Origin: Candidatus Gastranaerophilales bacterium
GTDB taxonomy: Bacteria; Cyanobacteriota; Vampirovibrionia; Gastranaerophilales; UBA9971
Reading direction: 5' to 3'
Assembly (NCBI GenBank): GCA_028278605.1
Contig: JANQEB010000012.1
Span: 1 to 41,351 of the forward strand
Length of the DNA: 41,351 bases
Shown: one piece after another, positions 1,159 to 41,212 of the stretch
How the letters are laid out: each line of letters opens with the position of its first letter
Position numbering within the stretch: position 1 is the first letter of the stretch
The notes under the pieces: model-generated
The model's input: only the letters and a program-made list of their open reading frames with translations
The model's database searches: none
What the model was told of the DNA's origin: nothing
Made by a program: the position numbers and the translations under genes

Positions 1159-1281
1159 TATGATAATATGTGTAAATTTTTTACATTTAAATTTTTTTAT
1201 ATTTAAACCCTTGCTGTGTGAGACATGTATCTAAATCCTTTTTTCTTTCAATCATCATCTGTTCTTTCTTCATTTGTTTTA

Positions 1282-1333
1282 GCCGTTAACCTCCATTCAG
1301 CTAACGGCAGTCCGTGCCCGGACAGAAAGAGAG
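1282..1333 (+). promoter_or_regulatory. Structured, locally GC-rich leader with two hairpins
   Basis: Hairpin 1: 1282-1288 'gccgtta' pairs with 1302-1308 'taacggc'. Hairpin 2: 1310-1314 'gtccg', tetraloop, 1319-1323 'cggac'. Confidence 0.45.
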
Positions 1334-1370
1334 TCGGTAGTGGCCTTGTCAACCATTGCCGATTCTTTTT
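1334..1370 (+). terminator. Intrinsic terminator/attenuator upstream of the protease-scaffold gene
   Basis: 10-bp stem, 1334-1343 'tcggtagtgg' with 1353-1362 'ccattgccga' (two G-U pairs), 9-nt loop, then 'ttcttttt'. Confidence 0.55.
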
Positions 1371-1429
1371 CACTTCACATGTGAACAACAGTAAAGTTAA
1401 CAGTAAAACCGACAAAGGAATGTAAAGAT

Positions 1430-2875
1430 ATGCCTTTACCGAACTTTCATGCAGCCAGGACAAAAAGTCCTGAGTCCTTTGATAAGATTGTAGTATTGAA
1501 AAAGCTGCCAAACGGTATCATGATTTATGGTGGTAAATTAAAAACTGATACAGCAGGTGATAGCAAACCGCAATCTTACAGATTTCCTAAAGCTAAATTT
1601 ACAATACAGCAAGCTAAATCATGGCTGTCAGAAAATAACATTAAGATAATCCTCTTTGAACCGGCTGAAGGTGATAATCCTACAGAGAAAAAAGCCAAGG
1701 ATACCAAAGATGACAAGGGCAAAGGTGCTGATAAAGATATTAAGGAATCAAAATCTATTCACCTGGAAGAAAGTAGCAATGGCTTAAAAGACATCTTTGA
1801 AGACGGCATAGACAGTGAAGCCAATTTTAATATACTGACAAATCTTTCTGAATCTAAGGTGGACCCTGAAAACATGATTATCCGTGATGTTGTTGTATTA
1901 TCAAAAGTGTCATATGATACAGCAGGGAAGGTAAGGCGCAGATATACAGACAATGCGCTAAAGAGTGCAATTTCAGTATTTGAAGGTGCACCAGCTTATA
2001 TTAACCATGATAAGAAGAGATCAAGAAGTATAGACGGTCGTGGTATTAATGGTATGTATGGTGCATATAAAGGTTTAAGAGATGTTGGTAATAAAGTGAA
2101 GGCCGACTTACATTGCTTTGATTGTGCTGAATCTCGTAAGATAATGTCAATTGCTATGACAGCTCCGGACGTAGCAGGCAATTCAATACATGCTGCTGGA
2201 CGTGGACGGATAGAAAGTGGTGTTGAAGTTATTGAAGAAATCTTGCCTAGAACAAAGTGGGGACACAAGCCAAGTATTGATATGGTGCGTGACCCTGCTA
2301 CAACTATGAACATATTTGAAGACAGTTTACTTGATGACAATAGCGATAATAACAATAATAATAGGAGATCGAAAACAATGAATTATAAAGACATTGAAAT
2401 CAATGAAATGAAGTTAAGACGGCCTGATATTGTTTCTATGTTTCAGGATGAAGGCGCAGTGTCACGTGATGACGAAATCAAAACCTTGACTGAAGAGCGT
2501 GATACCTTAAAGACTGAAAACGATAAGCTGAAAGGCAAAGTGGATGTCTTTGAAGCCAAAGCAAACATGTCAGAAAAGACAGAACTTGTTAACCGGCTGA
2601 TTGATGAAGTCAAATTGCCAAAAGAAGTAATCACAGATCTTTTCAAAAGCCAGCTGATGCAGGTTGAAGAAGCCAAAGATGGTGATAAGGTTATTACGGT
2701 TGAGGAGCAGATTAAAAGTTTGCTTGCTGACCGGAAAGCTATTGCAGGAAATAAAGGCGTGCGGAACATGGGCAGTCATCAGACTGAGATTACAAACCTG
2801 AATGAAAACAAAGGCAATGACACCATTGATATCAATGATGACAAAACTTTTGTGAATGCCTTAAGAAGGCGTTAA
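1430..2875 (+). CDS. Putative prohead protease / scaffolding fusion protein
   Basis: Lies between the minor head and capsid genes. The central 'ALKSAISVFEGAPAYINHD' region looks like HK97-type prohead protease. The C-terminus has a charged coiled coil (EERDTLKTENDKLKGK). Confidence 0.45.
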   Translation: MPLPNFHAARTKSPESFDKIVVLKKLPNGIMIYGGKLKTDTAGDSKPQSYRFPKAKFTIQQAKSWLSENNIKIILFEPAEGDNPTEKKAKDTKDDKGKGADKDIKESKSIHLEESSNGLKDIFEDGIDSEANFNILTNLSESKVDPENMIIRDVVVLSKVSYDTAGKVRRRYTDNALKSAISVFEGAPAYINHDKKRSRSIDGRGINGMYGAYKGLRDVGNKVKADLHCFDCAESRKIMSIAMTAPDVAGNSIHAAGRGRIESGVEVIEEILPRTKWGHKPSIDMVRDPATTMNIFEDSLLDDNSDNNNNNRRSKTMNYKDIEINEMKLRRPDIVSMFQDEGAVSRDDEIKTLTEERDTLKTENDKLKGKVDVFEAKANMSEKTELVNRLIDEVKLPKEVITDLFKSQLMQVEEAKDGDKVITVEEQIKSLLADRKAIAGNKGVRNMGSHQTEITNLNENKGNDTIDINDDKTFVNALRRR

Positions 2876-2905: not shown

Positions 2906-2923
2906 TTATATAGTACGATATAA
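2906..2923. promoter_or_regulatory. 18-bp quasi-palindromic motif, AGTACG class (TTATATAGTACGATATAA)
   Basis: Exact consensus. Intergenic, upstream of 2979. Confidence 0.8.
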
Positions 2924-4787: not shown

Positions 4788-5318
4788 ATGAATTTTCTTA
4801 AAAAAACAATCCAAATCATTTTAGCTTTTCTTATTATGGTATTTTGTATCGTACCATATAATAGTGCGTTTGGTGCTGACGGTGAAGTTGTTACAACTGA
4901 ACTTTTAGGAACATCAAGAAATAAAGGCACACTGGTTGTCAAGGTCACTTGGACAGCAGCAGCAGGTGGCACTAAAGCAAATTTTGTTTTTAGAACTTCG
5001 ACAAGCTGTACAGGTTCAATGTCATGCTCTGAGATTATGGACAGCTTAACCGGTCAAGGTTATTACCTTTATGCAGTTCGCACTATACCAGGCACTACAG
5101 CACCAGCAGCTAATTATGACATAACAATAATCGATACAGAATCAGTTGATATAATGGGCGGTAAGCTGGCAAACAGAAGTGCTACAGCAGCCGAATATGT
5201 AACAGCACCAGGGAGTCCACAACCTATTTATGATGATCTTACAATCACATGGGCTAATGTAACAAATGCTAATTGTACTGGTACTGTTTATTTGCTATTT
5301 GCTTTATATCCGAATTAA
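4788..5318 (+). CDS. Secreted protein with N-terminal signal peptide, unknown function
   Basis: 'MNFLKKTIQIILAFLIMVFCIVPYNSAFG/ADGE' is signal-peptide-like. The mature part is beta-rich and Thr/Ala-rich. Confidence 0.6.
   Translation: MNFLKKTIQIILAFLIMVFCIVPYNSAFGADGEVVTTELLGTSRNKGTLVVKVTWTAAAGGTKANFVFRTSTSCTGSMSCSEIMDSLTGQGYYLYAVRTIPGTTAPAANYDITIIDTESVDIMGGKLANRSATAAEYVTAPGSPQPIYDDLTITWANVTNANCTGTVYLLFALYPN
4844..4861. promoter_or_regulatory. Degenerate copy of the 18-bp motif inside a CDS (TTGTATCGTACCATATAA)
   Basis: 16 of 18 match, and it shares the upstream 'attt' with the copies at 23079 and 30144. Confidence 0.4.
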
Positions 5319-9415: not shown

Positions 9416-10030
9416 ATGCAAGGCTATGATATGGAAAACGCAAAAACTGGTATTTTAGATTCCTACAAGTGGGACAAAGTTAAAAAGGAATATGCATCTA
9501 TTGTTATTGAAAGCCTGTTAAAACATTTACCATCTATAAAAAGTGCTCATGACTTTGGTTGTGGTACTGGGATATATATTGAAGAGTTATTGAAGCATAA
9601 AGTAAAGGTAACTGGTTTTGATTTGAGTCCGAATGCTTTTTATGAAGCAAAAACAAATATGGACAACATACATCAAATAGATGTATCAGGACAAATACCA
9701 GAAGATTTTAAAATGCGTGATTTAAGTTTAGCAATAGAGGTATCAGAACATATACCACCACAAAGAGTACAATTGTTTATAGAAAATTTATGCAATTTAT
9801 CTTCTAAATATATCTTTATGACATCGACAAATAAACCAGGTAAGTACCATTTAAATCCGCAACCAAAAAAATACTGGATAAAAAAAATTGAAGATATCGG
9901 TACACATTATCATTCGCCAACTTTATCAAATGAATTAATGGAGATATATAAAAAATCAATTCCTGACAAGCATGGTTTATTATGGTTTAAATATGACCTT
10001 ATGATTTTTATTAGGAATTTAAGAGTATGA
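9416..10030 (+). CDS. Class I SAM-dependent methyltransferase
   Basis: Motif I 'DFGCGTGIYIEEL' and post-I 'VTGFDLS'. No DNA-MTase DPPY/PCQ motifs seen. Confidence 0.65.
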   Translation: MQGYDMENAKTGILDSYKWDKVKKEYASIVIESLLKHLPSIKSAHDFGCGTGIYIEELLKHKVKVTGFDLSPNAFYEAKTNMDNIHQIDVSGQIPEDFKMRDLSLAIEVSEHIPPQRVQLFIENLCNLSSKYIFMTSTNKPGKYHLNPQPKKYWIKKIEDIGTHYHSPTLSNELMEIYKKSIPDKHGLLWFKYDLMIFIRNLRV

Positions 10031-10365
10031 GTAAACGAAAAAAAATATTATGGTTTTGCTATTCTGTTAATTGGGCTTATGAGATTCGCACACATAACCT
10101 AATAAGGTTATTACCTGAATATGATCACACAGTAATGTATCCGGTTAAGCGCCTTGAAATAATTGAAGGCATTATAGCTGAACATGATATAGTTATTTGT
10201 TGGGACAAATTCCATTACAAAGATATTAAGGAAAAACATAAAATCATACAGTGTTTTCCTGGTATGAGAATGTTTGAAAAAATAATGGAAAATGAAATTA
10301 ATAGCATTGAACCTTTAAAAAGAGAATATACAGACCAGCATAAAAAGCTGCTTGGACCAACTTGA
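10027..10365 (+). CDS. Hypothetical protein, possibly a glycosyltransferase N-terminal-domain fragment
   Basis: ATGA overlap with the methyltransferase stop. The 'KKILWFCYSVNWAYEIR' pattern resembles a GT-B N-terminus. Confidence 0.3.
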   Translation: MSKRKKILWFCYSVNWAYEIRTHNLIRLLPEYDHTVMYPVKRLEIIEGIIAEHDIVICWDKFHYKDIKEKHKIIQCFPGMRMFEKIMENEINSIEPLKREYTDQHKKLLGPT

Positions 10366-10366
10366 T

Positions 10367-10384
10367 TTATATGGTACGATATGA
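10367..10384. promoter_or_regulatory. 18-bp motif variant (TTATATGGTACGATATGA) overlapping the glycosyltransferase start codon
   Basis: 16 of 18 match. Confidence 0.55.
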
Positions 10385-11427
10385 CAATTAATAAGAACAA
10401 GTACACTGTTTTGTCAATTGAAAATTCCTATGTATGGTCATGGTCTTTTGGTCTTATAGCCTTGAAGGATGTTATGGATTATGATTTTATTCGAATTAAA
10501 AGAATACCAGCATGTAGAATTCCTATTGATTTGGTGAAATACTTTGATATAACATTATTACAAAACCTTGATACAATAAAACAGATTCAAAGTGATTATA
10601 AAAAGGTAATTGCAAGGATAGGGGGAATGGTGATTGATGACAAGAATAAAGCTGACAGACATAATTTAGCACTTAACAAAGTAGGTGCTGTGATTGCCAC
10701 CAATAATCAGTTATATGAAATAGGAAAGACTGTTAATGGTAAGACTTTTTTAATCCCAAATGGCGTAGACCTTGATTTGTTTTATCCCAAAGAAAAGAGT
10801 CCATACCAGAAAGATCAAAGGGAAAATTTTACTGTTGGTTTTGCTGGTAATATATGGGGACCGGGACAAATATATAAAGGATGGAATTATTATTCTAAAG
10901 CAATTGATAGATTGATAGGTGAAGTTGATCATTATGAGGTACTCTTTGATTATAACCAGCTTGAACATGATGATATGCCAGAAAAGTTTTTTCATAAAAT
11001 TGATTGTTTAATATTACCATCTAAAGGTGAAGGTTGTTCGAATATAACAATGGAAGCTTTGGCGTGTGGTGTTCCGGTTCTTACAACAAAAGTAGGTTTT
11101 CATGGTGAAATGTTAAAAAATGGTGTTGATTGTCTTTTTATAGAACGAAATGTTGCTGACATAGTTGAAAAGGTTTTAAAGCTAAGAGGCAGCAAGAAGC
11201 TTCAAGAAACACTGTCTAAAAATGGTCGTGAGTTTGCAGAAAAAAACCATGACATAAGAATGATAGCAAGGATGTATGATCAAGTTTTTAAAACAGTTTT
11301 AAATAATACACGTAGAAAAGTAAATCGTGAAGCAAATGAAAGATTGGCTGAAAATAAAAGATTAAAAAGCAAAAAGAAAAGAAGACGCAAGATAAATAAA
11401 TTTGATGGTAAATCAAGAGTTAAATAA
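10381..11427 (+). CDS. Glycosyltransferase, GT-B fold (GT4 / glycos_transf_1-like)
   Basis: 'LPSKGEGCSNITMEALACGVPVLTT' is the canonical EX7E region. Lys/Arg-rich C-terminal tail. Confidence 0.7.
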   Translation: MTINKNKYTVLSIENSYVWSWSFGLIALKDVMDYDFIRIKRIPACRIPIDLVKYFDITLLQNLDTIKQIQSDYKKVIARIGGMVIDDKNKADRHNLALNKVGAVIATNNQLYEIGKTVNGKTFLIPNGVDLDLFYPKEKSPYQKDQRENFTVGFAGNIWGPGQIYKGWNYYSKAIDRLIGEVDHYEVLFDYNQLEHDDMPEKFFHKIDCLILPSKGEGCSNITMEALACGVPVLTTKVGFHGEMLKNGVDCLFIERNVADIVEKVLKLRGSKKLQETLSKNGREFAEKNHDIRMIARMYDQVFKTVLNNTRRKVNREANERLAENKRLKSKKKRRRKINKFDGKSRVK

Positions 11428-18619: not shown

Positions 18620-19069
18620 ATGATAAAGCCAATAAAACTTTTTAGACTAGAAAGAGATGGTTATGCTACATTTGGTTCGTTGATTATTGAAAACAAATTA
18701 ATTTGTAATACCCTAGAGCTTCCCTGGTTAAATAATATACCGTTTAAATCCTGTGTGCCCATTGGATGTTATAAGCTGGCTATACGTACAAAGTGGAAGC
18801 ATTCAGATGATTATGGACACACGTTTGAATTGAAAGGTGAAGGTGTAAAAGACCGGCCTGGATGTTTGATTCATCCTGCTAATTGGCCCTATCAACTGCA
18901 TGGATGTATAGCACCTGGTCATGCTATTGGTGACTTATCTGGTAAGCGTGCAATCAAAGACAGTCGGAATGCATTCTTTAAAGTCATTAATGCTATTAAA
19001 GAAATACCATTTGAAACTATTGGTGGTAATGTAACCAACATCCCTTTCGTAATTACAGATCATAGTTAA
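18620..19069 (+). CDS. DUF5675-like protein, candidate cell-wall hydrolase (lysin position)
   Basis: 'ATFGSLII...CNTLELPW.NN...SCVPIGCY' and 'GCLIHPANW...LHGCIAPG' match my recollection of DUF5675. It is the last gene of the late block. Confidence 0.45.
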   Translation: MIKPIKLFRLERDGYATFGSLIIENKLICNTLELPWLNNIPFKSCVPIGCYKLAIRTKWKHSDDYGHTFELKGEGVKDRPGCLIHPANWPYQLHGCIAPGHAIGDLSGKRAIKDSRNAFFKVINAIKEIPFETIGGNVTNIPFVITDHS

Positions 19070-19087
19070 CTATATAGTACGATATAA
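19070..19087. promoter_or_regulatory. 18-bp motif, AGTACG class (CTATATAGTACGATATAA)
   Basis: 17 of 18 match. Lies immediately after the stop of the last late gene. Confidence 0.75.
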
Positions 19088-19131: not shown

Positions 19132-19162
19132 TTGACATCTAATTAATTGTGTGCACAATTAA
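19132..19162 (+). promoter_or_regulatory. Sigma70-like early promoter with an overlapping 20-bp palindromic operator
   Basis: 'ttgaca' at 19132-19137. Palindrome 'ttaattgtg tg cacaattaa' at 19143-19162 covers the -10 region. Confidence 0.55.
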
Positions 19163-19204: not shown

Positions 19205-19222
19205 TTAGATAGTACGATATAA
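19205..19222. promoter_or_regulatory. 18-bp motif, AGTACG class (TTAGATAGTACGATATAA)
   Basis: 17 of 18 match. Ends 4 nt before ATG 19227, which has no SD. Confidence 0.75.
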
Positions 19223-19226: not shown

Positions 19227-19430
19227 ATGCCAAGAAGAAAACAAAGTGAAAAAAAATATGATGATAGGTTTAATATCAGAACTTATAAAACTTTTAAAGA
19301 CCAGGTAAGAGAAGCAGCGGAAAAAGAAGGTCTTTCCGTTTCAGGGTTTATTACAAATGTTTTACATATGGCATTAGATGTAGAAATAAAAAAGGCTACA
19401 GCTAAAAAGAAGGCAAAGGTAGTTCATTGA
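19227..19430 (+). CDS. Ribbon-helix-helix (CopG/Arc-like) transcriptional regulator
   Basis: Beta strand 'RFNIRT' followed by two helices, 'KTFKDQVREAAEKEG' and 'SVSGFITNVLHMAL'. First gene after the promoter/operator. Confidence 0.65.
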   Translation: MPRRKQSEKKYDDRFNIRTYKTFKDQVREAAEKEGLSVSGFITNVLHMALDVEIKKATAKKKAKVVH

Positions 19431-20459: not shown

Positions 20460-20717
20460 ATGGATTTAATTTTAAAGTTAAACGATAGGGAAAAACAAAT
20501 AATTAAAAATTTTATATCAAAAGAACTTGAATATACTTTTTCACTGTCAGCAAAAGTTTGTTTTATACCATCCCAGGTTAATAAAGCTTCTTCAAAATCT
20601 TCAGAATCTTCAAGGGCTAGAGAAGACCTTGAGTATAAAGAGATGTTTGAATATATAGATAGTCTTGTTGGCAAGGCTTATGTTTTTGAAAAAAAAATTT
20701 ATGGTATCAAAACATAG
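20460..20717 (+). CDS. Small hypothetical protein carrying an in-frame 102-bp insert that contains the tape-measure antisense segment
   Basis: RBS 'aaagagg'. Residues 'FSLSAKVCFIPSQVNKASS' are encoded by the reverse complement of tape-measure codons. Confidence 0.45.
   Translation: MDLILKLNDREKQIIKNFISKELEYTFSLSAKVCFIPSQVNKASSKSSESSRAREDLEYKEMFEYIDSLVGKAYVFEKKIYGIKT
20540..20596 (-). repeat. Perfect 57-bp inverted copy of tape measure segment 14193..14249
   Basis: 57 of 57 bases identical to the reverse complement. Flanked by imperfect direct repeats 'cttgaatata' (20526) and 'cttgagtata' (20628), 102 bp apart. Confidence 0.95.
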
Positions 20718-23078: not shown

Positions 23079-23096
23079 TTATATCGTACTATATAA
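23079..23096. promoter_or_regulatory. 18-bp motif, CGTACT class (TTATATCGTACTATATAA)
   Basis: Exact. Followed by an A-run, RBS and ATG 23111. Confidence 0.8.
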
Positions 23097-26979: not shown

Positions 26980-27582
26980 ATGAAAATAAAAGGCAAGGGT
27001 AAGGAGAACATGAATCTGCGTGAATCCTGGGGTAAACGGATAGCACGTGATAACATGCATAATGTACCGATCATCACCAGTTTACCGAAAGACGCTGAAA
27101 AAGCTGATGTCAGAGTCCGTGTCATTGGAAGACTAGCGCATATGGCAAAAACGATTTGTCAATGTAATCGGCAGCGGTTTAAAAATGTTGGTGATGTATA
27201 TCGTGCTGGTCTTTATTTTTCAATCATCATTTTATTTGAAATGTATGGTGGTGAACCGGATAGTAAGGATACTGCGTATGGACATGAAGTGTATGATATT
27301 TTAAAGAAGAATGAAAAATATCGTGCCATGTCAACGTTATTAGACGACATCGTAACCTCAGCAAATGATGTTATTAAAGCTGCTGATGATAGCATAATAT
27401 CGATGAAGAGCATGAGACAAGAGCTTGAAGAGTTGATTGAAGAGATGCCAGGGAACGTACAAAAAGCTGCTGAAAACCGGATTAAAAGATTATTGGATGG
27501 TAGTAAAATGTCAGACATCAGGGATAATCAATTTCGTGGTGGAGACCGAAAAAGTAAAGTATACAAGAGGAACAATCGTTAG
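26980..27582 (+). CDS. Hypothetical protein adjacent to the 8-bp repeat array (candidate DNA-binding or initiator protein, speculative)
   Basis: 200 aa, RBS 'aagggtggtg'. The array starts 10 bp after its stop. Confidence 0.4.
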   Translation: MKIKGKGKENMNLRESWGKRIARDNMHNVPIITSLPKDAEKADVRVRVIGRLAHMAKTICQCNRQRFKNVGDVYRAGLYFSIIILFEMYGGEPDSKDTAYGHEVYDILKKNEKYRAMSTLLDDIVTSANDVIKAADDSIISMKSMRQELEELIEEMPGNVQKAAENRIKRLLDGSKMSDIRDNQFRGGDRKSKVYKRNNR

Positions 27583-28996: not shown

Positions 28997-29209
28997 ATGC
29001 CAAGAAAAAAAACAATAACACACACAAACAAGGCAAAGAGAGAATACATTGATCGGTGGTCATCTCATTTTGATGAAATGAGTCAGCTCGTACTTGTAAT
29101 ACCAGACAACGTTGGTGTTGATTTTGTAGTATGGCTAAAAAAGCAAAAAGCTGAGTTTAATGTTTGGCTTAAACTTGCTGCTGATGAAATTTATGGTATT
29201 GATGATTGA
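28997..29209 (+). CDS. Hypothetical small protein
   Basis: 70-aa ORF in the early operon. Confidence 0.45.
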   Translation: MPRKKTITHTNKAKREYIDRWSSHFDEMSQLVLVIPDNVGVDFVVWLKKQKAEFNVWLKLAADEIYGIDD

Positions 29210-29231
29210 AACAATAAGAAAGGTACAGACA

Positions 29232-30140
29232 ATGACAACTGATACTATCGAAATTTTAACCATCACAAAACTAAAAGATCTTAAATCGTACAATACAAAA
29301 ATATTGCTTGCCAAATATAATGAGTTGGCAGAACGTCCAATTAAAGCGGTCAAGACATCAAGAAAAGAATTTTGTAAAAGACTGCTTTCGTTAATCCTTG
29401 AAAAAAACAATAAGGCACGATCAAGGGCAGCATCTTCAGACAAAGACAAAACTAAAAACAAAGACAGTAAACCTAAAACCACAGATGAATCAAAGACAGT
29501 TTCGATATCTACTGATTCGATAGGAGAATATAAAGAACTTGATCGTGCCTTTAAATTCTACAATGAAAGATTATTCAAGGGCGCACTGCCTGATACCATT
29601 ATCTCTTTACGTGGGCGCAAATCATGTAATGGTTTTTTTCGTGCTCAATCATTTAAATCAAGAGAAAACGAAGAGGTTGAACCAGATGAAATAGCAATGA
29701 ACCCTGAACACTTCAGCCGGTCGATTGAAGAAATCTTGTCAACCCTGGTACATGAGATGGTACACAGTTGGCAATTTCATTGTGGTAAAAAAAAGAAGGT
29801 AACAAAATATCATAACAAAGAATGGGCTGAACAAATGGAGCTAGTTGGTCTTGTTCCTTCTGTTACTGGTGCTGAAGGTGGTAAGAAGACCGGGCAAAGC
29901 ATGACGCATTATATTGAAGAAGGCGGTATCTTTGAAACAGTAACCGCTGAACTCCTTAAGTCAGGTCTCAATCTTAAATGGGTAAGACTTCAAAATTTAA
30001 CCAAGACAAAAAAATCTAAAGTAAAATACACTTGTCCTGATTGCGACCAGAACGCATGGGCTAAACCTGATGCAGTATTAAGATGTGGCTTATGCTGTGA
30101 TGATATGGGAGAAGCTGTTTTGATGAAATCTGAAGAATAG
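29232..30140 (+). CDS. SprT-like zinc metalloprotease domain protein (ArdC-C-terminal-like)
   Basis: 'LVHEMVHSWQ' (HExxH) and 'YHNKEWAEQMELVGL'. C-terminal CxxC...CxxC. ATG 29232 with RBS 'agaaagg' is preferred over the track start 29160. Confidence 0.6.
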   Translation: MTTDTIEILTITKLKDLKSYNTKILLAKYNELAERPIKAVKTSRKEFCKRLLSLILEKNNKARSRAASSDKDKTKNKDSKPKTTDESKTVSISTDSIGEYKELDRAFKFYNERLFKGALPDTIISLRGRKSCNGFFRAQSFKSRENEEVEPDEIAMNPEHFSRSIEEILSTLVHEMVHSWQFHCGKKKKVTKYHNKEWAEQMELVGLVPSVTGAEGGKKTGQSMTHYIEEGGIFETVTAELLKSGLNLKWVRLQNLTKTKKSKVKYTCPDCDQNAWAKPDAVLRCGLCCDDMGEAVLMKSEE

Positions 30141-30143: not shown

Positions 30144-30161
30144 TTATATCGTACTATATAA
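30144..30161. promoter_or_regulatory. 18-bp motif, CGTACT class (TTATATCGTACTATATAA)
   Basis: Exact. Followed by an A-run, RBS and ATG 30179. Confidence 0.8.
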
Positions 30162-30641: not shown

Positions 30642-30839
30642 ATGAAATCAAGAGAACAATATAAAAACAGAACATATACTAAAATTATTCTTGAAGACGG
30701 CCTAACCATTATTCAATGCAATGACTGCAATGCTTATGCTGAAAAACCTGGTGGCATAAAACATCATGATACATGTCAACCTGGTGAAGCTGCATATTGG
30801 CGTGACTTTTATCGTGAAGCAAGCTTGGAGTATGAGTGA
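30642..30839 (+). CDS. Hypothetical small protein
   Basis: 65 aa. Its stop overlaps the next start. Confidence 0.5.
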   Translation: MKSREQYKNRTYTKIILEDGLTIIQCNDCNAYAEKPGGIKHHDTCQPGEAAYWRDFYREASLEYE

Positions 30840-31033
30840 TGTCGAGGGGTGGAAAGCGAAAAGGCGCAGGTAGACCAAGGGGAAAAGTTATTCCGGAAAG
30901 TTTAAGACGTAAAAAGTTTTCAATTAGAATACCAGCGTATCTAATAAGACTGTTAAAAATGGCAAGTATAAATAGACAGCTCTCACAAGGCAAAATAGTT
31001 GAAAGGGCTTTAAAAAAATATTTAGGACTATAA
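30836..31033 (+). CDS. Ribbon-helix-helix (CopG-like) DNA-binding protein with basic N-terminal arm
   Basis: Strand 'KFSIRIP' and helices 'AYLIRLLKMAS' and 'SQGKIVERALKKYL'. Confidence 0.6.
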   Translation: MMSRGGKRKGAGRPRGKVIPESLRRKKFSIRIPAYLIRLLKMASINRQLSQGKIVERALKKYLGL

Positions 31034-31149
31034 CAGACCTAGAGCTATAACAGGCAAGAAAGGAAAAAAATGAGAAATAAAAAATATTCAAACTGTAAAG
31101 TGTAATCAATTTTTTAAGGTGGGGTGGGCATGAAATGACACTGCACTTG

Positions 31150-31184
31150 ATTAGCTTTGTACAGTACTTAATTAGCTTTGTACA
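31150..31184 (+). repeat. 14-bp direct repeat 'attagctttgtaca' x2 with 21-bp spacing (candidate operator)
   Basis: 31150-31163 and 31171-31184 are identical. Intergenic, downstream of the RHH gene. Confidence 0.85.
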
Positions 31185-31215
31185 AAATAAACTATGAAAG
31201 GTGGTGATATACAAA

Positions 31216-31446
31216 ATGATTAACTCAATACTCAAATGTCAAAAAGGTGCGTCAACACTGCTGCTTATGGTAGTTATCTGGACAACAATTACAGGTGGTT
31301 CAATACTTGGCAAAAAGGTTAAAGATCTTAAAGACTGTGAAGAGCGCTTGAAAAAGTATGAAGTATCTGAAGTTGCACAGCCGGTATCTTTTGAAGTGAC
31401 TGCCGACATAGACAATACAGACAGCACTACTGTTCAGCGCAGGTAA
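31216..31446 (+). CDS. Small membrane protein
   Basis: ATG 31216 follows 'aaaggtggtga'. TM segment 'STLLLMVVIWTTITGGSIL'. Confidence 0.5.
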   Translation: MINSILKCQKGASTLLLMVVIWTTITGGSILGKKVKDLKDCEERLKKYEVSEVAQPVSFEVTADIDNTDSTTVQRR

Positions 31447-31491
31447 ACATTTAGATAAGTCCTTAACTAAACATTTAACCGTGTCCGGTTT

Positions 31492-31902
31492 GTGGCTTAC
31501 ACAGCATGGACCGGGCACACATCAAAAAAAACAATGATAGAATACATTCAAAATATAGCACCACCTGCAAACTTAAATACAACTGCCGAAATGTTTATTG
31601 TTATGCATCGGCTTTACAAACATATAAGGATAGATAAAAATGATTGTTGGAATTTTGAAGGTCTCTTGGTTAATGGCTATGGTCGTATTAGCGTTGATAA
31701 CAAAAAATACCGCAGCCATAGGTTATCTTATGCTATTTTTCATATAGATGAAGATATAAGCAATAAGGTAATTTTACATACCTGTGACAATCCGTCTTGT
31801 ATAAATCCTTCTCATTTAAGAAGCGGTACACAAAGAGAAAATATACAAGACTGTATTAATAAAGGTAGGTTTAGTTTCAATTTGGGTAATCTTAAAAGGT
31901 AG
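31492..31902 (+). CDS. HNH homing endonuclease (HNH_3-like)
   Basis: 'NGYGRISVDNKKYRSHRLSY' and 'HTCDNPSCINPSHL'. The start is uncertain (GTG 31492 or ATG 31534). Confidence 0.8.
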   Translation: MAYTAWTGHTSKKTMIEYIQNIAPPANLNTTAEMFIVMHRLYKHIRIDKNDCWNFEGLLVNGYGRISVDNKKYRSHRLSYAIFHIDEDISNKVILHTCDNPSCINPSHLRSGTQRENIQDCINKGRFSFNLGNLKR

Positions 31903-31937
31903 TTCTAATACAAAGATGATATTATAAAGGTGACACC

Positions 31938-32078
31938 ATGAAACTTATAGTATTCATAGCAGGTTTTATTTTGGGCTTTCTTCTTGGAGTATTCACAAAG
32001 GCAAGAAAACTTAAATCTGAAAAAGACTTGTTTGAATATCGTAGCTGGAAAGATATGAAAAAAGATGAAGATGAATAA
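31938..32078 (+). CDS. Small membrane protein (46 aa, not in the track)
   Basis: RBS 'aaaggtga'. 'MKLIVFIAGFILGFLLGVF' TM helix followed by a charged tail. Confidence 0.45.
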   Translation: MKLIVFIAGFILGFLLGVFTKARKLKSEKDLFEYRSWKDMKKDEDE

Positions 32079-32097
32079 GGCAAGGGCAAGTAACTAA

Positions 32098-32655
32098 ATG
32101 ATATACATTACAAACTCAAATACTAAAATAGGAAACACGGGGAATATCAGCTTGCCACCTATAAAGACATGTTTTGATTTTCCATGTCATCAAGAATGTT
32201 ATGCTGTAAAGTTTTATAAGATGACTAATGTTAAGAAAAGCTGGGACACTAATCTAGCTCAGTTAAAAGAAAACAGAAGAATATACTTCGAGTTAATCAG
32301 AAGATACTTATTAAAAAAGAGGGTAAGATATTTTCGTTGGCACGTGTCAGGTGATATTATAGACCAAGATTATTTAGAGCGAATGAAGATATTGGCTTAT
32401 CATTATTACTTTACAAATTTTCTTGTTTACACAAAAGGATATCATTTAGATTTCAATAATACGCCTGGAAATTTGTCAATCATATTATCTGTGTGGCCTG
32501 GGGTTGATGTTCCTAAAAAGAACTTACCATTAGCATTTATCAAGACAAAAGAAGAAACAAGAATATTTAATGCTATTGATTGTCCAGGTCAATGTGAAGA
32601 GTGTAGAATATGTTGGAACATAAAAGATAAAAATATAGCACTAGAGAAGCACTAA
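32098..32655 (+). CDS. Conserved phage protein with N-terminal Cys cluster (GP88-like, function unknown)
   Basis: 'SLPPIKTCFDFPCHQECYA' and 'RWHVSGD', as I recall for the GP88 family. Confidence 0.35.
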   Translation: MIYITNSNTKIGNTGNISLPPIKTCFDFPCHQECYAVKFYKMTNVKKSWDTNLAQLKENRRIYFELIRRYLLKKRVRYFRWHVSGDIIDQDYLERMKILAYHYYFTNFLVYTKGYHLDFNNTPGNLSIILSVWPGVDVPKKNLPLAFIKTKEETRIFNAIDCPGQCEECRICWNIKDKNIALEKH

Positions 32656-32708
32656 AGAAACACTAGAGAAAAGCATTAACATAAAACAATGAATGGAGAC
32701 AATGACAA

Positions 32709-32961
32709 ATGCGCTACTTTATAGAGACAGCTTACCAAGTGTCAGAGCTTGAACAAAAAATTAAAACCAAAGAAGTTGAACCGGTTTTTCCAGGTACTAC
32801 TTAAAGACAGTGGACATATTAAAAGATTTACCTGGATGTTATTAAAACGTGATATAAATTTTGAACGAAAGCCATTAGGTTCAGGCATAACAATTTTTTA
32901 TATTGATTTGGATGTCGCTTTCTTTATGCCGAAAAAGGATTCCAAGAAACAAGACAAATAA
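32709..32961 (+). pseudogene. Possible frameshifted small gene (two frames joined at a T5 run)
   Basis: ATG 32709 with SD 'ggaga' stops after 31 codons. The +1 frame (track ORF 32749..32961, TTG start, no SD) continues. Removing one T from 'ggtttttcc' would fuse them. Confidence 0.3.
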
Positions 32962-32976
32962 AAGGGATGATCAATC

Positions 32977-34701
32977 ATGAAGTTGCAAACAGGCGATACA
33001 GAATTTAGCTTAATAGAAGAACAAGAGCAAGCAAATTTAGAATCAGAATTAATGATCAAGCGTGCACGTGATGCATTTAAAAGGTTTAGAAACTGTGATT
33101 TTAGAGTCAATCAATATGAAACAGTAGAATTTGTAAACGAGTCTAAAAAACCTATCACTATAATTCAAGCACCTACTGGCTTTGGCAAGTCATTGGTAGG
33201 TGTAGTATCCGGTGCTTTATTTGGTCAATTCACATACCTGGTATCATCCAAACAGCTCCAAGATCAATTGGAAAAAGATTTCCCTGAAGTCGAGATCATG
33301 AAAGGTCGCAACAACTATGCATGTACCTTAATGCCTGGTAAAATGGCTGATGCTTGTACACATTCAAAAAAGATGCCATGCCCGTTTAGAAAGAAAATGT
33401 GTCCGTATGATAGAAAAAAGAAAAAGGTATTAAAAGCTAAATACCGTGTACTCAATTATCATTATTTTTTAACTGAAGCAAATTACATAGGTGGTTTTAG
33501 CGGAAATCAAATTCTAATCTGTGATGAAGCTGATTTACTCGAGTCTATTTTAACAGACTTTGTAAACCTTCAGATATCAGGAAAACTTATGCGTGAATTT
33601 AAAATAGAACCACCTAAATTTAAAACTGCTGAAGCTAAAGAAGGCGTTAAAAACTGGAAGCATTGGGCTGAAGTTCAAGTGGCACCAAAACTAGTAGATA
33701 GAATGGCAGAACTTGAACAGCACATTGACCCGTGGAATGATGAAAATACAAACAGTAAAGCTACTAAAGAACAAAACCGGCTTAAGGGCATACTGACAAA
33801 AATAAAAATGTTTATTGAAAACGTTGATGAAACATGGATAATGGAAGAAAGTTTTTATACAAACAAAGGTGCAAATACAAAAGGCTTTAAACAATTACCT
33901 GCCTTAATTTTCAAACCTATTTGGTTAACACCACAGCTGTCAGAGATGTATTTTTTTAAACATACATTAAAAACAGTTTTGATGTCAGCCACCTTTCCAC
34001 CTATACGTGTTATGACAAAATTGCTAGGTCGTGAATTTTCAGCTTTTGATTATCCTGAATTTGACAATGATAAATTTGGTATACCTACTTCATTCCCGAT
34101 AGAAAACAGACCTATCATATTAAGACCAGTAGCAGACATGTCATTTAAGACTTTCAACAAAGAGCTACCTATATTGATAGATGAAATAATCCAAATTCTT
34201 GAAGAGCATAAAGGACAAAGAGGTATTATTCATTCGGTCTCATATAAACTTAATCGACACATAATGAATATCGGTCAGCAGCGGTTAATGACTCATGACT
34301 CCACAAACAGAAACCAGGTGATAGAAAATTTTAAAAATGCATTCCGTGAAGATACAGTACTGGTCAGCCCATCTATTCAGCGTGGTGTAGATTTGCCAGG
34401 CAAAGAGTGTGAGTTTGTTATACATGCCAAAGTGCCATACAAATCATTGGCAGACAAGCTTACAAGGCGCAGAGTCTATAGTTCTAAGGTGGGCAATTTA
34501 TGGTATACTTCACTTACAACTCAAGAGATTGTGCAAGGCTGCGGACGTGGTAACAGAAAGAAAAGTGATTACTGTGTTAACTATCTATTAGACAAACAAT
34601 TCTTAAGAATGCTTGGACTGGGCAAGAAGAAATATAAATCACCTGTTAATATGAAAAAGCTTTATCCGAATTACTGGTATGAAGCACTTGAGAGGTATTA
34701 G
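32977..34701 (+). CDS. DinG/XPD (Rad3)-family Fe-S DNA helicase
   Basis: Walker A 'APTGFGKS', 'CDEAD' box, four-Cys cluster region 'CTLMPGKMADACTHSKKMPCPFRKKMCPY', motif VI 'QGCGRGNR'. Confidence 0.7.
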   Translation: MKLQTGDTEFSLIEEQEQANLESELMIKRARDAFKRFRNCDFRVNQYETVEFVNESKKPITIIQAPTGFGKSLVGVVSGALFGQFTYLVSSKQLQDQLEKDFPEVEIMKGRNNYACTLMPGKMADACTHSKKMPCPFRKKMCPYDRKKKKVLKAKYRVLNYHYFLTEANYIGGFSGNQILICDEADLLESILTDFVNLQISGKLMREFKIEPPKFKTAEAKEGVKNWKHWAEVQVAPKLVDRMAELEQHIDPWNDENTNSKATKEQNRLKGILTKIKMFIENVDETWIMEESFYTNKGANTKGFKQLPALIFKPIWLTPQLSEMYFFKHTLKTVLMSATFPPIRVMTKLLGREFSAFDYPEFDNDKFGIPTSFPIENRPIILRPVADMSFKTFNKELPILIDEIIQILEEHKGQRGIIHSVSYKLNRHIMNIGQQRLMTHDSTNRNQVIENFKNAFREDTVLVSPSIQRGVDLPGKECEFVIHAKVPYKSLADKLTRRRVYSSKVGNLWYTSLTTQEIVQGCGRGNRKKSDYCVNYLLDKQFLRMLGLGKKKYKSPVNMKKLYPNYWYEALERY

Positions 34702-34703
34702 AA

Positions 34704-34904
34704 ATGACAATATGTTTTAGATGCAAAAAAGAAATGAAGTCAGCTTATGTTTCAATGGTTACTGAATATTGTGATGATGGTGAAACAAATATTTTTGTAG
34801 GTGAAAATGGTTATGTTCAGTTGATGGTTGAATGTACAAACTGTATCTATAAACATTTTGTATACATACCGATTGAAAAGATTATTAATAAGATAGGAAA
34901 ATAA
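34704..34904 (+). CDS. Hypothetical small zinc-ribbon-like protein
   Basis: 'CFRC' ... 'CTNC'. Confidence 0.45.
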   Translation: MTICFRCKKEMKSAYVSMVTEYCDDGETNIFVGENGYVQLMVECTNCIYKHFVYIPIEKIINKIGK

Positions 34905-34907
34905 AAA

Positions 34908-35150
34908 ATGAAAATTGAACCAGAAAAAATCATAACATGTAACAGCAATCGACTTAAAAACGGTATAGCACTTTTTATATCAGAGCATAGATATATATTC
35001 TTTTCTCATGAATGCATAGCAGATGGAATGTTATTGAATTTGATAAAAAGAAACATCAAGATGAATGCTATATCAAACCATCAAAAAAGGCTACTAATAA
35101 AACTAGGACAGCAACTTGTATTATTAAATGAAACCGGTGAAGAGGTTTAA
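34908..35150 (+). CDS. Hypothetical protein
   Basis: 80-aa ORF, tightly packed. Confidence 0.45.
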   Translation: MKIEPEKIITCNSNRLKNGIALFISEHRYIFFSHECIADGMLLNLIKRNIKMNAISNHQKRLLIKLGQQLVLLNETGEEV

Positions 35151-35154
35151 CATT

Positions 35155-35532
35155 ATGCAAAGAGCAAGAGTTATATTAATACTGACAATGATAGGGTTGT
35201 TATGGTTAATAGGCTTTATGTTTATCATGTCTAGTTCTTCATCAGTTCAAAAAGATAAAGCTGAACGGATTAAAAAAGAACATGCCTTAAACATAGAGAC
35301 AGACAGCGACAAACGAATAGTTATAGTACCAAGAATCGAATCCTATCAATCTGTATCCCTTCAATTGGATAACCCTGCATTATGGATAACCTGTGATGAT
35401 ATAATGATAGTAATCAAGTCAAGCGAAGTGGAACACCTAACCGAACAAGAAGCAAAATTACATTTAAGATTCTTGATACAAACTATCAGTAAGTGTTTTG
35501 AAGATATTATAATGATTGCAAAAGTCAAGTAG
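35155..35532 (+). CDS. Membrane-anchored hypothetical protein
   Basis: 'MQRARVILILTMIGLLWLIGFMFIM' signal anchor. The track start is 35128. Confidence 0.45.
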   Translation: MQRARVILILTMIGLLWLIGFMFIMSSSSSVQKDKAERIKKEHALNIETDSDKRIVIVPRIESYQSVSLQLDNPALWITCDDIMIVIKSSEVEHLTEQEAKLHLRFLIQTISKCFEDIIMIAKVK

Positions 35533-35557
35533 ACATCTATTATCAGGAGATAAAAAA

Positions 35558-36025
35558 ATGAAAGAATTACCACCAGGGCAAGAAAAAAGATTTCCAGGTA
35601 AATTTAAGGTATTTAAGGTGTGGTGCAAGACTGAAAAACAATGGGAAAAGCACGAATGTCTGTTAACGAACAAAGGTATTCTATATCAAATGGTAGGGAA
35701 AAACCTTATAAAATGCAATCCTGATACACACCTTATCTTTTTTTTCACAGGACTATACGACAAAAAAGGAATGCCAATCTTTGAAGGTGACTTTATAAAG
35801 CATCCACAATATAATAGACCATATTCAATTTCAAGAAAATCTTGTGATGTTATAAGTCTTGTAACCTGGTTTGATGGTGGCAGTGCTCCCCATTATCAGC
35901 AACCATGTTTTCAAGGTTATGAGATAAAAAACGAAAAAGGGTATGGCTATGGTGATTGGTCAGAGTTTTTCAGGTGTGAGGTAATAGGTAATATATGTGA
36001 AAACCTTGAGTTGTTAGAAATATAA
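35558..36025 (+). CDS. YopX family protein
   Basis: 'GLYDKKGMPIFEGDFIKH' and C-terminal 'EVIGNICENLELLE'. ATG 35558 follows 'caggag'. Confidence 0.7.
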   Translation: MKELPPGQEKRFPGKFKVFKVWCKTEKQWEKHECLLTNKGILYQMVGKNLIKCNPDTHLIFFFTGLYDKKGMPIFEGDFIKHPQYNRPYSISRKSCDVISLVTWFDGGSAPHYQQPCFQGYEIKNEKGYGYGDWSEFFRCEVIGNICENLELLEI

Positions 36026-36067
36026 ACAATTATTAAAAAGAGATTAAAAAGAGGAGAATTAAAGATT

Positions 36068-36370
36068 ATGCTTATTACAAACAAGAAAAACTGGAAAGAC
36101 ATCAAGATCAAATACCATTATACTGAAGCTGGACAGCAGATAGAAGGTGAAATATCTCTTGACCTGCTTTATGTATTATTCGCAAGAGAATATACAGATG
36201 AAATGTTGACACCTGCCAGGGAAGGCTTAAAGGATTTGATAGACCTATTGAAACAAATGGTTGATAATAATTCAAATGCCATAAAAGAATTGATCGCTTT
36301 GTCAAAATTAAAAAGTTGGCAGAACATAGAAGGCACAAATCAAGATATTGATTTAAGCGAAGGGAATTAA
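36068..36370 (+). CDS. Hypothetical protein
   Basis: RBS 'agaggag'. Confidence 0.5.
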   Translation: MLITNKKNWKDIKIKYHYTEAGQQIEGEISLDLLYVLFAREYTDEMLTPAREGLKDLIDLLKQMVDNNSNAIKELIALSKLKSWQNIEGTNQDIDLSEGN

Positions 36371-36374
36371 TCAA

Positions 36375-36677
36375 ATGAAAATCAAACATTTTCCAGAATC
36401 AAATATTACATTTGCCAGAGATCAACCGGAATACCAGCCATTACCAGCATTTTATGTAGGTGACAACCAGGGCATCGTTATTTCATGCTGGTCATTATCA
36501 ATCAAGGAACGCATCAAGGTGTTATTTACCGGCTGTATATGGCTGCATGTGCTGACTTTTAATAATCCATTACAACCACAGTTAATGCAAACCGATTATC
36601 CATTTATAAGAAAGTCGATAAAGGACAAAATATTAGAAGCACTTACGAAGAAACGGTACTTCTTTAAAGACGATTAA
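36375..36677 (+). CDS. Conserved hypothetical phage protein
   Basis: 100-aa ORF, 'FPESNITFARDQPEYQPLPA'. Confidence 0.45.
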   Translation: MKIKHFPESNITFARDQPEYQPLPAFYVGDNQGIVISCWSLSIKERIKVLFTGCIWLHVLTFNNPLQPQLMQTDYPFIRKSIKDKILEALTKKRYFFKDD

Positions 36678-36691
36678 AACTTGACTAAATC

Positions 36692-36721
36692 TTGACTAAA
36701 AATTAATTGTGTGTACATAAT
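36692..36721 (+). promoter_or_regulatory. Sigma70-like promoter (TTGACT, 18-nt spacer, CATAAT) with the same AATTAATTGTGTG box as the promoter at 19132
   Basis: 'ttgact' is duplicated at 36681 and 36692. 'aattaattgtgtgtaca' at 36701-36717 compares with 'aattaattgtgtgcaca' at 19141-19157. Confidence 0.55.
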
Positions 36722-36761
36722 AAAAATAGCGCAACAAATTATGAGTTGGGAAGGTTGATAA

Positions 36762-36932
36762 ATGAAATCATATTATCAATTGTTTAGAAGTTATCATTTT
36801 TTTAGATATTATATAGGATTTAGTGTCTATGAAGCATATTATCATGCTGTTCACTTGCAAAGACTACATAATGATGTAACTATTTTTATGCGTAAACAAA
36901 ACCAGGCAATGTGTGTGAATGAAAAAAACTGA
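36762..36932 (+). CDS. Small hypothetical protein (56 aa, not in the track)
   Basis: ATG 36762 follows 'ggaagg'. Manually translated. Confidence 0.35.
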   Translation: MKSYYQLFRSYHFFRYYIGFSVYEAYYHAVHLQRLHNDVTIFMRKQNQAMCVNEKN

Positions 36933-37149
36933 AGTCATAGCCGATTTAGTTGACATGCGAAAACGTCTAAAAGAAAAAGTACCACAGGATATAAAAGGAC
37001 GTGCAGCATTGTTAACCAGTTTTAAAAAGTCAATTAACCAGTTATCAAGATATAAGGTTACAAAGAGTGTGGGCTTATTAATATATAAAGAGCGCATAGA
37101 TGATTTTAACAAGTTTTTAGAATCTATTAACATGAAAGGTATGGTATAA
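36919..37149 (+). CDS. Hypothetical protein
   Basis: 76-aa ORF overlapping the previous stop. Confidence 0.45.
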   Translation: MKKTEVIADLVDMRKRLKEKVPQDIKGRAALLTSFKKSINQLSRYKVTKSVGLLIYKERIDDFNKFLESINMKGMV

Positions 37150-37319
37150 TGGTTAGAGATAAATATAAAATGATTGAAGGCAATAAAAAAACAATTGAAA
37201 AAGAACTTAATGACATTAATAATACGTTTCCTGGGGTTGAAGTTGTATCAATGGTTATTGCTGACTGTAAAGAAAACTTGTATTATGGAATACTCTTAAA
37301 AATATCTACAAAAGTATAA
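37149..37319 (+). CDS. Small hypothetical protein (56 aa, not in the track)
   Basis: ATG overlaps the upstream stop ('taATGg'). Manually translated to TAA 37317-37319. Confidence 0.35.
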   Translation: MVRDKYKMIEGNKKTIEKELNDINNTFPGVEVVSMVIADCKENLYYGILLKISTKV

Positions 37320-37345
37320 CCTTAATTTAAAGGCAACTACTTAAA

Positions 37346-37864
37346 ATGAGATACAAAATACCAGGTTTAATTATATTCGATTTAAAAAACGAAGGTGGCA
37401 CAGTTATTTATGATGTTGGACAAAAGACAAAGTACACAGATGACTTTCCCTTACTGGTTCAAGGCTATGCACGTGATGGATTAAACAACGAGCAAATAGC
37501 TGAAAAACTTGGAATAGGTGAAACATCTTTTTATAAATATTTAAATCTATATCCGAAAATGGCAAAGGCATTACGTGAAGGGCGTACACCTGTTGACGTA
37601 AAAGTTGAGAATGCCATGCTACAAATAGCACTTGGCTATGACTACAGAGAAGAAAAGCAAGAAGGTATATTTGACAAAGATGGTAATATGCTTGATATCA
37701 CAAAGCGTACAATCACTGAAAAGCATATCCCACCTAATTTTAATGCTGGCAAGTTCTGGCTGACCAATCGTAAACCTGGTAAGTGGACAAAAGATTTTGT
37801 TAATCCATTAGAGTCCGGTGATGTTGAAATAGAAGTATGTGATGTTGATGATATGGAAGATTAG
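37346..37864 (+). CDS. terS: Terminase small subunit
   Basis: HTH 'NNEQIAEKLGIGETSFYKYL' and 'FWLTNRKPGKW'. Lies upstream of the large terminase. Confidence 0.65.
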   Translation: MRYKIPGLIIFDLKNEGGTVIYDVGQKTKYTDDFPLLVQGYARDGLNNEQIAEKLGIGETSFYKYLNLYPKMAKALREGRTPVDVKVENAMLQIALGYDYREEKQEGIFDKDGNMLDITKRTITEKHIPPNFNAGKFWLTNRKPGKWTKDFVNPLESGDVEIEVCDVDDMED

Positions 37865-37897
37865 TTTGCAATAAAAACAGGAGAAAATGAATATATA

Positions 37898-38128
37898 ATG
37901 TATGACTGTGTACAATATTTTAACTTCATGAAGCGTGGTATTTATGGGACACAGTTTGTAGTAGAGCAGTATGAGTTCTCAAAATACTATTCTGCTGGTG
38001 CTTATTATGTTAGAAGAGGTGCAAAGTTTATTAAGTGTTTCAATTGCAGCACGGTATTTGTTGTTGTTAAGGCAGACCATGTTTGTCCATTCTGTCATAG
38101 CAATAATGAACTGAAGACTTTTATATAG
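37898..38128 (+). CDS. Hypothetical zinc-ribbon protein
   Basis: 'CFNC' ... 'CPFC'. Confidence 0.45.
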   Translation: MYDCVQYFNFMKRGIYGTQFVVEQYEFSKYYSAGAYYVRRGAKFIKCFNCSTVFVVVKADHVCPFCHSNNELKTFI

Positions 38129-38138
38129 TACGATATAA
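38121..38138. promoter_or_regulatory. 18-bp motif, AGTACG class (TTATATAGTACGATATAA)
   Basis: Exact. Overlaps the stop at 38126-38128, upstream of terL. Confidence 0.8.
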
Positions 38139-41125: not shown

Positions 41126-41148
41126 GTGATCAGTGATAATTAATAATC

Positions 41149-41166
41149 TTATATCGTACTATTTAA
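41149..41166. promoter_or_regulatory. 18-bp motif, CGTACT class (TTATATCGTACTATTTAA)
   Basis: 17 of 18 match. First of a tandem pair 36 bp apart. Confidence 0.75.
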
Positions 41167-41184
41167 AACTATTTAAAATATTTC

Positions 41185-41202
41185 TTATATCGTACTGTAT
41201 AA
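41185..41202. promoter_or_regulatory. 18-bp motif, CGTACT class (TTATATCGTACTGTATAA)
   Basis: 17 of 18 match. Ends 10 nt before ATG 41213. Confidence 0.75.
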
Positions 41203-41212
41203 AGGTAAAACC

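Follow-up and report, generated by a model that had tools for sequence, protein, structure and literature searches.

Promoters of the T7 type, which are read by a single-subunit RNA polymerase, and the late promoters of phage T4 (TATAAATA) are dispersed, near-identical and information-rich sequences located at gene starts. The T4-type late promoter consists of a -10 box only, TATAAATA, and depends on gp55/gp33-like factors. In the temperate Streptomyces phage phiC31, conserved inverted repeats (CIRs) of about 17 bp are found at many intergenic positions, where they are bound by the phage repressor, an HTH protein; they are concentrated in the early region beside a special class of promoters. 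The repressor Arc acts on a single operator.

[quoted passage not shown] Each stoperator is a 13-mer, the repressor that binds it is a monomeric HTH protein of a temperate phage, and function requires an orientation that tracks transcription (PMC9283540). Furthermore, ribbon-helix-helix (RHH) proteins serve as master regulators of several promoters on one replicon, as described for ArtA of pSK41 (PMC2777438) and Reg576 of p576 (PMC6294495). The sites of both proteins are located at mapped sigma-70 promoters (PMC2777438; PMC6294495).

The window, i.e., the whole stretch of 41,351 nucleotides analyzed here, represents a complete phage genome that closes into a circle of 41,252 bp, as its first and last 99 bases are identical (99-bp terminal overlap). 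Its source is an uncultivated phage with a GC content of about 33%. All plausible genes are located on the plus strand and are transcribed in one direction. The biggest ORFs encode the tape measure, a helicase, tail proteins, the portal and the terminase. The following genes were assigned by profile searches, with the HNH endonuclease of the early region listed alongside:

37346, plus strand: small terminase with HTH
38221 (GTG start), plus strand: large terminase (TerL)
39590, plus strand: portal
41213 (ATG), plus strand: minor head gene, wrapping through the window start to 1022
3531, plus strand: major capsid protein
14853, plus strand: Dit tail protein
31492..31902, plus strand: HNH endonuclease

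The early region extends from 19227 to 38128 and encodes an exonuclease, an AAA_24 ATPase, a 3'-5' exonuclease, an SMC-like ATPase, an ERCC4 nuclease, a SprT-like protein, the HNH endonuclease and a helicase. Rfam and tRNA scans were empty. The tetranucleotide CGCG is absent from the whole window (0 vs. 9.6 expected) and GATC is depleted (75 vs. 125), which suggests that restriction sites of the host are avoided. In addition, a 66-nt inverted repeat was found (14190-14255 and 20534-20599; 95% complementary, about 60 nt identical), with one arm in the tape-measure gene and the other in the small early ORF 20460..20717. The 6.3 kb between the arms contain tail genes, the late/early junction and the gene of an Arc-like protein, and an independent Logan contig (L048) ends exactly within both arms. 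The segment may be able to invert; alternatively, its orientation may have been chosen by the assembly.

According to the original prediction, this genome carries an 18-bp quasi-palindrome in nine strong copies and one degenerate copy. All ten coordinates and sequences are as described there. With up to two mismatches, the proposed pattern TTATATMGTACKATATAA matches 10 times, compared to 0.01 matches expected from 100 dinucleotide-preserving shuffles. An oriented descriptor, TTATATCGTACYATATAA, fits each of the ten copies with at most one mismatch in its best orientation. The copies, and a possible weak eleventh one, are as follows:

2906..2923, minus strand: perfect match to TTATATCGTACTATATAA, stop of 1430..2875 30 nt upstream, next start codon (ATG, 2979) 55 nt downstream
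4844..4861, plus strand: one mismatch (TTGTATCGTACCATATAA), the only copy wholly within an ORF (4788..5318, signal-peptide-like N-terminus)
10367..10384, minus strand: one mismatch (TCATATCGTACCATATAA), 1 nt past the stop of 10027..10365, including the ATG of 10381..11427
19070..19087, minus strand: one mismatch, directly adjoining the stop codon of 18620..19069, which is the last late gene; a terminator-like hairpin and the early promoter follow downstream
19205..19222, minus strand: one mismatch, ending 4 nt short of the start codon (ATG) of the Arc-like RHH gene, with an A-run and no Shine-Dalgarno sequence in between
23079..23096, plus strand: perfect, stop codon 11 nt upstream, ATG (23111) 14 nt downstream, followed by an A-run and GAGG
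30144..30161, plus strand: perfect, stop codon 3 nt upstream, ATG (30179) 17 nt downstream
38121..38138, minus strand: perfect, positions 6-8 forming the stop codon (TAG) of 37898..38128; the GTG of TerL follows after 82 nt
41149..41166, plus strand: one mismatch, first of a tandem pair 36 bp apart, 23 nt past the portal stop
41185..41202, plus strand: one mismatch, second of the tandem pair, with 10 nt between its end and the minor head gene (ATG at 41213)
29281..29298, plus strand: possible weak eleventh copy (TTAAATCGTACAATACAA), three mismatches, within ORF 29160..30140

Four copies are perfect (2906 and 38121 on the minus strand, 23079 and 30144 on the plus strand). Both orientations are used five times each, 4844, 23079, 30144, 41149 and 41185 being plus and 2906, 10367, 19070, 19205 and 38121 minus copies. 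Oriented to the strand that reads CGTAC, the copies have the consensus ttTTATATCGTACYATATAAaa. The arms TTATAT and ATATAA flank a central GTAC with their centres about 11 bp apart, and the dyad symmetry covers 16 of the 18 positions and is prolonged by the flanks (TT...AA). The remaining asymmetry is conserved, with position 7 always being C and position 12 being T or C, but never G. A symmetric core (CGTACG or AGTACT) is found in no copy, as the original prediction had it. The two mirror classes of core which it distinguished, CGTACT and AGTACG, apply to eight copies and not to 10367 (GGTACG) and 4844 (CGTACC), whose cores are mirror images of one variant; the two classes are a single asymmetric motif of which both orientations are used. 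Copy 4844, called degenerate there, has one mismatch to the oriented pattern and by this measure is no more degenerate than the other copies. Restriction avoidance was rejected as the source of the asymmetry, since GTAC (112 vs. 101 expected) and AGTACT (7 vs. 8) are not avoided; the count of CGTACG (0 vs. 2.5 expected) is uninformative.

The ten copies differ from the oriented pattern by eight substitutions, at positions 2, 3, 12, 12, 13, 15, 15 and 18. None of them falls within positions 4-11, for which the chance under uniform drift over 18 positions is (10/18)^8, i.e., about 0.009. The core of the motif is under selection, because TATCGTAC is invariant in all ten copies and all eight substitutions lie elsewhere. 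As an 8-mer, TATCGTAC occurs 11 times compared to 0.5 times expected.

Only one of the ten copies is fully coding, the other nine being either intergenic or overlapping a start or stop codon (P ~3e-8, with a baseline of 11% of the 18-mers of the genome not being fully coding). This location had been claimed for all strong copies; counted over all copies it holds for nine, with 4844 lying inside an ORF. The further claim that most copies are followed by an A-run, an RBS and an ATG applies only to 23079, 30144 and 41185, after which the ATG follows at 10-17 nt from the copy end and carries a Shine-Dalgarno sequence. It does not apply to 19205, which is followed by an A-run and an ATG without an RBS, to 19070, which is followed by the terminator-like hairpin, to 2906 and 38121 with their start codons 55 and 82 nt further on, or to 10367, which includes the ATG. 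An orientation code, with plus copies at gene starts and minus copies at stops, is not supported, as the distances of the five plus and five minus copies overlap. The description of the sites as module boundaries is only loosely correct, as 38121, the tandem pair 41149/41185 and 2906 are located within one conserved syntenic block of packaging and head genes.

A search for relatives by megablast and by tblastn with the capsid protein found none among 50,697 cultured phages. Searches with TerL in IMG/VR, JGI metagenomes, GTDB genomes and a protein set of 5.8 billion clusters gave a best match of 63% identity. The only contigs identical to the window (100%) come from a single run, SRR20820740. 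The motif is absent from the relatives, the nearest of which, at only 63% TerL identity, is too distant for a fair conservation test. In two of these relatives, L009 and L168, homology with the window is continuous from the small terminase to the capsid gene, and the motif-bearing spacers are absent at the equivalent junctions. An origin of the motif sites as mosaic junctions was rejected on the grounds that this homology is unbroken across 38121, 41149/41185 and 2906.

The missing spacers would fit the motif being a site of recombination, nicking or copying at the DNA level, either as an element spread by duplication or as a target of the HNH endonuclease (31492..31902), which is encoded in the same genome. 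In that case, descent from a common sequence or the choice of strand, and not regulation, would account for the asymmetry. This is quite unlikely, although the random orientation of the copies is in line with it, as are four copies which are identical over 21-22 nt within otherwise unrelated flanks and the local tandem duplications at 2877-2911 and 41141-41212. The homology of L009 and L168 on both sides of 38121, 41149/41185 and 2906 leaves no mosaic breakpoints at these sites, the substitutions avoid the core, which argues for functional selection, and neither a transposase nor an integrase was found. Furthermore, conservation stops about 2 nt outside the 18-mer, the flanks being unconserved beyond TT/AA, target-site duplications are missing, and about 22 bp are too short for a mobile element. 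The end of conservation and the missing target-site duplications also led to the rejection of a miniature mobile element.

The first of the tandem duplications comprises GTTAAAGCTTTTGTAT and GTTAAAGCTTTTATAT, 19 nt apart, and is located ahead of copy 2906. In the second one, two occurrences of ACTATTTAAA lie between the members of the tandem pair. New copies of the motif may originate by slippage, because tandem duplications adjoin motif copies.

Outside this phage the motif is rare. The exact 18-mer was found in seven stretches of IMG/VR, none of which shares a protein with the window at E <= 1e-5; only L004 among them contains two exact copies. In the prophage-like stretches L003, L004 and L006 (43-48% GC), the 18-mer lies inside a 26-bp palindrome, TATA-TTATATCGTACTATATAA-TATA, with flanks that are conserved among the three. 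These are a separate contig family unrelated to the window, and the 18-mer is common to both by chance or convergence. The 185,579 reference genomes contain six exact matches, each single-copy and in unrelated phyla, and the 14-mer TTATATCGTACTAT gave single matches only among the 120 matches listed. A widespread box of a host regulator was rejected, as the 18-mer is essentially absent from the reference genomes and IMG/VR. A literature search for the motif sequence returned only unrelated sequence strings.

The dispersed, information-rich layout at gene starts is what the motif shares with T7-type and T4 late promoters, and it is all that it shares with them as a class. In addition, the right arm and the A-run resemble the T4 late box TATAAATA, with right arm and flank reading ATATAAAA in five of ten copies. 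The motif could on this basis be the core of a phage-specific promoter without a -35 region, used by the host RNA polymerase together with an unrecognized phage factor, in which transcription would start in or just after the AT-rich right arm (TAYRATATAAAA) and give short-leader or leaderless mRNAs. Such starts are conceivable, as no Shine-Dalgarno sequence precedes the gene at 19227 and copy 10367 includes the ATG at 10381, and the junctions lack canonical promoters. The motif contains hexamers of the -10 type with A2 and T6, namely TACTAT or TACGAT in one orientation and TATAGT in the other, but they come by construction in any (TA)n-rich palindrome.

Several findings speak against a promoter core, which is rather unlikely. 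Neither an RNA polymerase nor a sigma factor, a late activator or an integrase was found in Pfam, PHROGs and precomputed annotations, the direct scan covering the window outside the structural stretch 5374-14220; a gp55-like protein was not detected either, and small divergent factors could escape detection. The asymmetric core is used 5:5 although all genes lie on one strand, and a promoter is not expected on both strands; unlike T7-type and T4 late promoters, the copies are thus not co-oriented, and the site is palindromic. A promoter at 19070 would fire directly into the terminator-like hairpin, and 4844 lies inside a gene. Comparison of the flanks and reading of the sequences revealed no upstream element (-35, ECF-type or sigma-D-type) conserved across the copies, and sigma-70-like sites (9 of 12 matches) are not enriched around the copies, with 20% compared to 18% at random positions. 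The geometry of a class-II activator was rejected, as at 23079 and 30144 there is no space for a -10 box between the motif and the ATG.

The host seems to use ordinary promoters in this phage, because good sigma-70-like promoters occur in gaps and at gene ends without the motif (1129, 19132, 28505, 36692 and 39428). Only one of them is a clear early promoter:

19132..19159, plus strand: sigma-70-like early promoter, TTGACA-16-CACAAT

The promoter at 1129 (TTGACA-18-TAAAAT, 1129-1158), a strong sigma-70-like one, lies in a non-coding stretch of 400 bp in the head module (1023-1429), in which it is followed by a more GC-rich segment ending in a T-run. The ORF 1225..1425, listed in this stretch, looks non-coding. 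A TTGACA or TTGACT promoter together with GC-rich hairpins is likewise found in L009 (~14640-14800) and L168 (~15894-16044), ahead of the homologue of 1430..2875. The consensus fold of the three sequences is unconvincing (-4.6 kcal/mol).

The original prediction also considered a hairpin for RNA processing. Taken more broadly as an RNA hairpin for processing, termination or translational control, this reading is most improbable, although the arms of the motif are complementary and lie in transcribed junctions beside ribosome-binding sites. Folding of seven single copies gave -5.8 kcal/mol (z = -3.9) for 38121 and no better than 0 to -2.7 kcal/mol, with z near 0 as in shuffles, for the other six, and the 74-nt stretch of the tandem pair is no better than shuffles (z = -0.49). 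In the alignment of the ten copies no pair is changed on both sides, i.e., there are no compensated changes in the arms, and 82% of the cells are paired compared to 85% in shuffles. Pairs in the middle of the stem are broken in 19205 and 41149. The loops differ by orientation (CGUACU or AGUACG) although the loop is the invariant part. The stems consist of A-U pairs only and are followed by A-runs instead of a T-run, so that they do not form intrinsic terminators, and they are too short for RNase III. No Rfam family matched.

Beyond the small terminase, the only specific DNA binders recognizable in the genome are two RHH proteins. Their presence had been predicted and is backed by profile, sequence and fold searches:

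19227..19430, plus strand: candidate binder 1, Arc-like RHH protein of 67 aa, first early gene (profile, sequence and fold searches)
30836..31033, plus strand: candidate binder 2, CopG-family RHH protein of 65 aa (profile and sequence/structure searches)

The product of 19227 matches the Arc-like PHROG (9e-5) and Pfam HicB above the curated cut-off, as well as NikA and Arc below theirs. It aligns to residues 9-41 of P22 Arc (E = 0.07) with the beta strand RFNIRT corresponding to QFNLRW of Arc, and the top fold matches of its model are all RHH proteins (NikA, Arc, CopG, AmrZ and AtaR). These matches are individually weak and mutually consistent. The product of 30836 matches the Arc-like PHROG (2e-5), the CopG-family structure 9kkd (E = 0.009) and Pfam RHH_1 with 18.5 bits, below the curated cut-off of 20.5. 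Homologues of either protein were not found by searching. Among the fold matches, solved complexes of RHH tetramers with DNA have sites of 18-22 bp (AmrZ 18 bp, CopG 22 bp).

Among the three readings offered by the original prediction, an operator of a dimeric phage regulator is the best supported one, given the near-dyad of 18-22 bp, the use of both orientations and the two RHH proteins, with binding itself as a candidate function. A site on duplex DNA for a phage protein is indicated, because the motif is a near-dyad of 18-22 bp, indifferent to orientation, with an invariant core and located at junctions; the 5:5 orientation with all genes on one strand fits a duplex-DNA function that is independent of orientation. 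We give about an even chance to the motif being a phage-private operator of this kind, with an RHH protein as the likeliest binder. Which of the proteins binds, and whether binding represses or activates, we infer.

In their likely biochemistry, RHH operators such as those of P22 Arc and Mnt, CopG, AmrZ, ArtA and Reg576 would be the nearest known systems. As in these, a small RHH gene adjoins a site, and the site measures 18-22 bp, has an approximate dyad and contains subsites about one helical turn apart. Unlike the sites of ArtA and Reg576, most of the ten copies are not located at a recognizable promoter, and binding by an RHH protein is a candidate assignment. Judged by analogy of layout, stoperators are the nearest counterpart. 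Like these, the phage motif is short, asymmetric and nearly invariant and is present in many copies; there are ten copies and a weak eleventh, with an oriented consensus which the ten match with at most one mismatch and an invariant asymmetric core, and nine of the ten copies are at gene junctions, two of them flanking the early promoter. It differs from stoperators in that its sites are 18-22 bp long, near-palindromic and distributed 5:5 over the strands of a genome with one direction of transcription. In addition, an integrase or repressor homologue was not found, and the candidate binders are RHH proteins; a search for an HTH immunity repressor of the stoperator type in Pfam, PHROGs and precomputed annotations, with the direct scan covering the window outside 5374-14220, was negative. 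With the CIRs of phiC31 the motif family shares the form of conserved inverted repeats at many intergenic positions.

[quoted passage not shown] The copies 19070 and 19205 bracket the early promoter at 19132 just upstream of the Arc-like gene; they have the same orientation and are 135 bp apart, i.e., about 13 helical turns and thus in helical phase. The Arc-like protein, as the first early product, could occupy both and shut off the early promoter by looping or blocking, which would amount to autoregulation. At the remaining sites, in short junctions inside transcription units, the bound protein would meet the elongating RNA polymerase of the host and might serve as a roadblock or contribute to a non-canonical start site. 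Copy 30144 heads the gene run which includes the second RHH gene. The outcome would be a genome transcribed in one direction, yet split into separately controlled blocks.

Some features are difficult for an RHH operator. A symmetric homodimer does not obviously explain the asymmetry of C at position 7 and T or C at position 12. Most sites lack a recognizable adjacent promoter, so that an operator there would have no obvious regulatory output. The tandem pair 41149/41185 with its spacing of 36 bp is out of helical phase. Repression of late junctions by an early protein would require an added step of relief. Moreover, a separate single-copy palindrome, TTAATTGTG tg CACAATTAA at 19141-19160, overlaps the spacer and the -10 region of the early promoter and could be the real operator of the Arc-like protein. 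It is a second, different operator-like site beside the Arc-like gene. In the relative L013, two palindromes of the sequence GTGTGCACA with a spacing of 22 bp lie about 500 bp ahead of the terminase gene.

The asymmetry would be accommodated by two proteins, with one RHH dimer on the half-site TTATATCGT and a second one on TTATATRGT. The orientation-free sites would then serve as roadblocks, and replication would titrate the regulator, so that a copy-number timer would free the late genes without a phage polymerase, sigma factor or antiterminator. This elaboration is highly unlikely.

The relative L168 (63% TerL identity) has a private dispersed motif of its own, AATCACTACC, with 9 matches compared to 1.1 expected. 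This motif, yAATCACTACC with the heptad AATCACT inside, occurs in both orientations and at gene junctions (1292-1301, 4127-4238, 6206-6292 and 15842-15885 of L168). Three of its copies surround a TTGACA promoter located between the terminase and portal genes, one lying upstream, one over the promoter and one downstream. The design matches that of the window in another sequence, which favours the operator reading and fits a joint turnover of regulators and sites. A Pfam search of the small ORFs of L168 for a matching regulator yielded nothing. L168 also contains a homologue of ORF 26980..27582 (200 aa), which in the window is followed by a gap with an array of repeats with a period of 8 bp (TTGATAyw, at least seven registers, 27591-27720) and in L168 by a different repeat array of its own (GCTGTATTGC, L168 1411-1722). 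In the window, the array and the ORF are probably a replication origin with its initiator.

The finding is statistically very strong but of a familiar kind, i.e., a set of genome-wide phage regulatory sites, with a new sequence and in a lineage without cultured or close metagenomic relatives. Its conserved asymmetry together with free orientation contrasts with the orientation-dependent stoperators. As the 18-22 bp site is essentially absent elsewhere, it could serve as part of an orthogonal protein-DNA pair in synthetic biology. If the motif is a regulon-wide operator, the ten sites and two tiny candidate regulators would be a compact system for the timing of gene expression in a phage that relies on the polymerase of its host.
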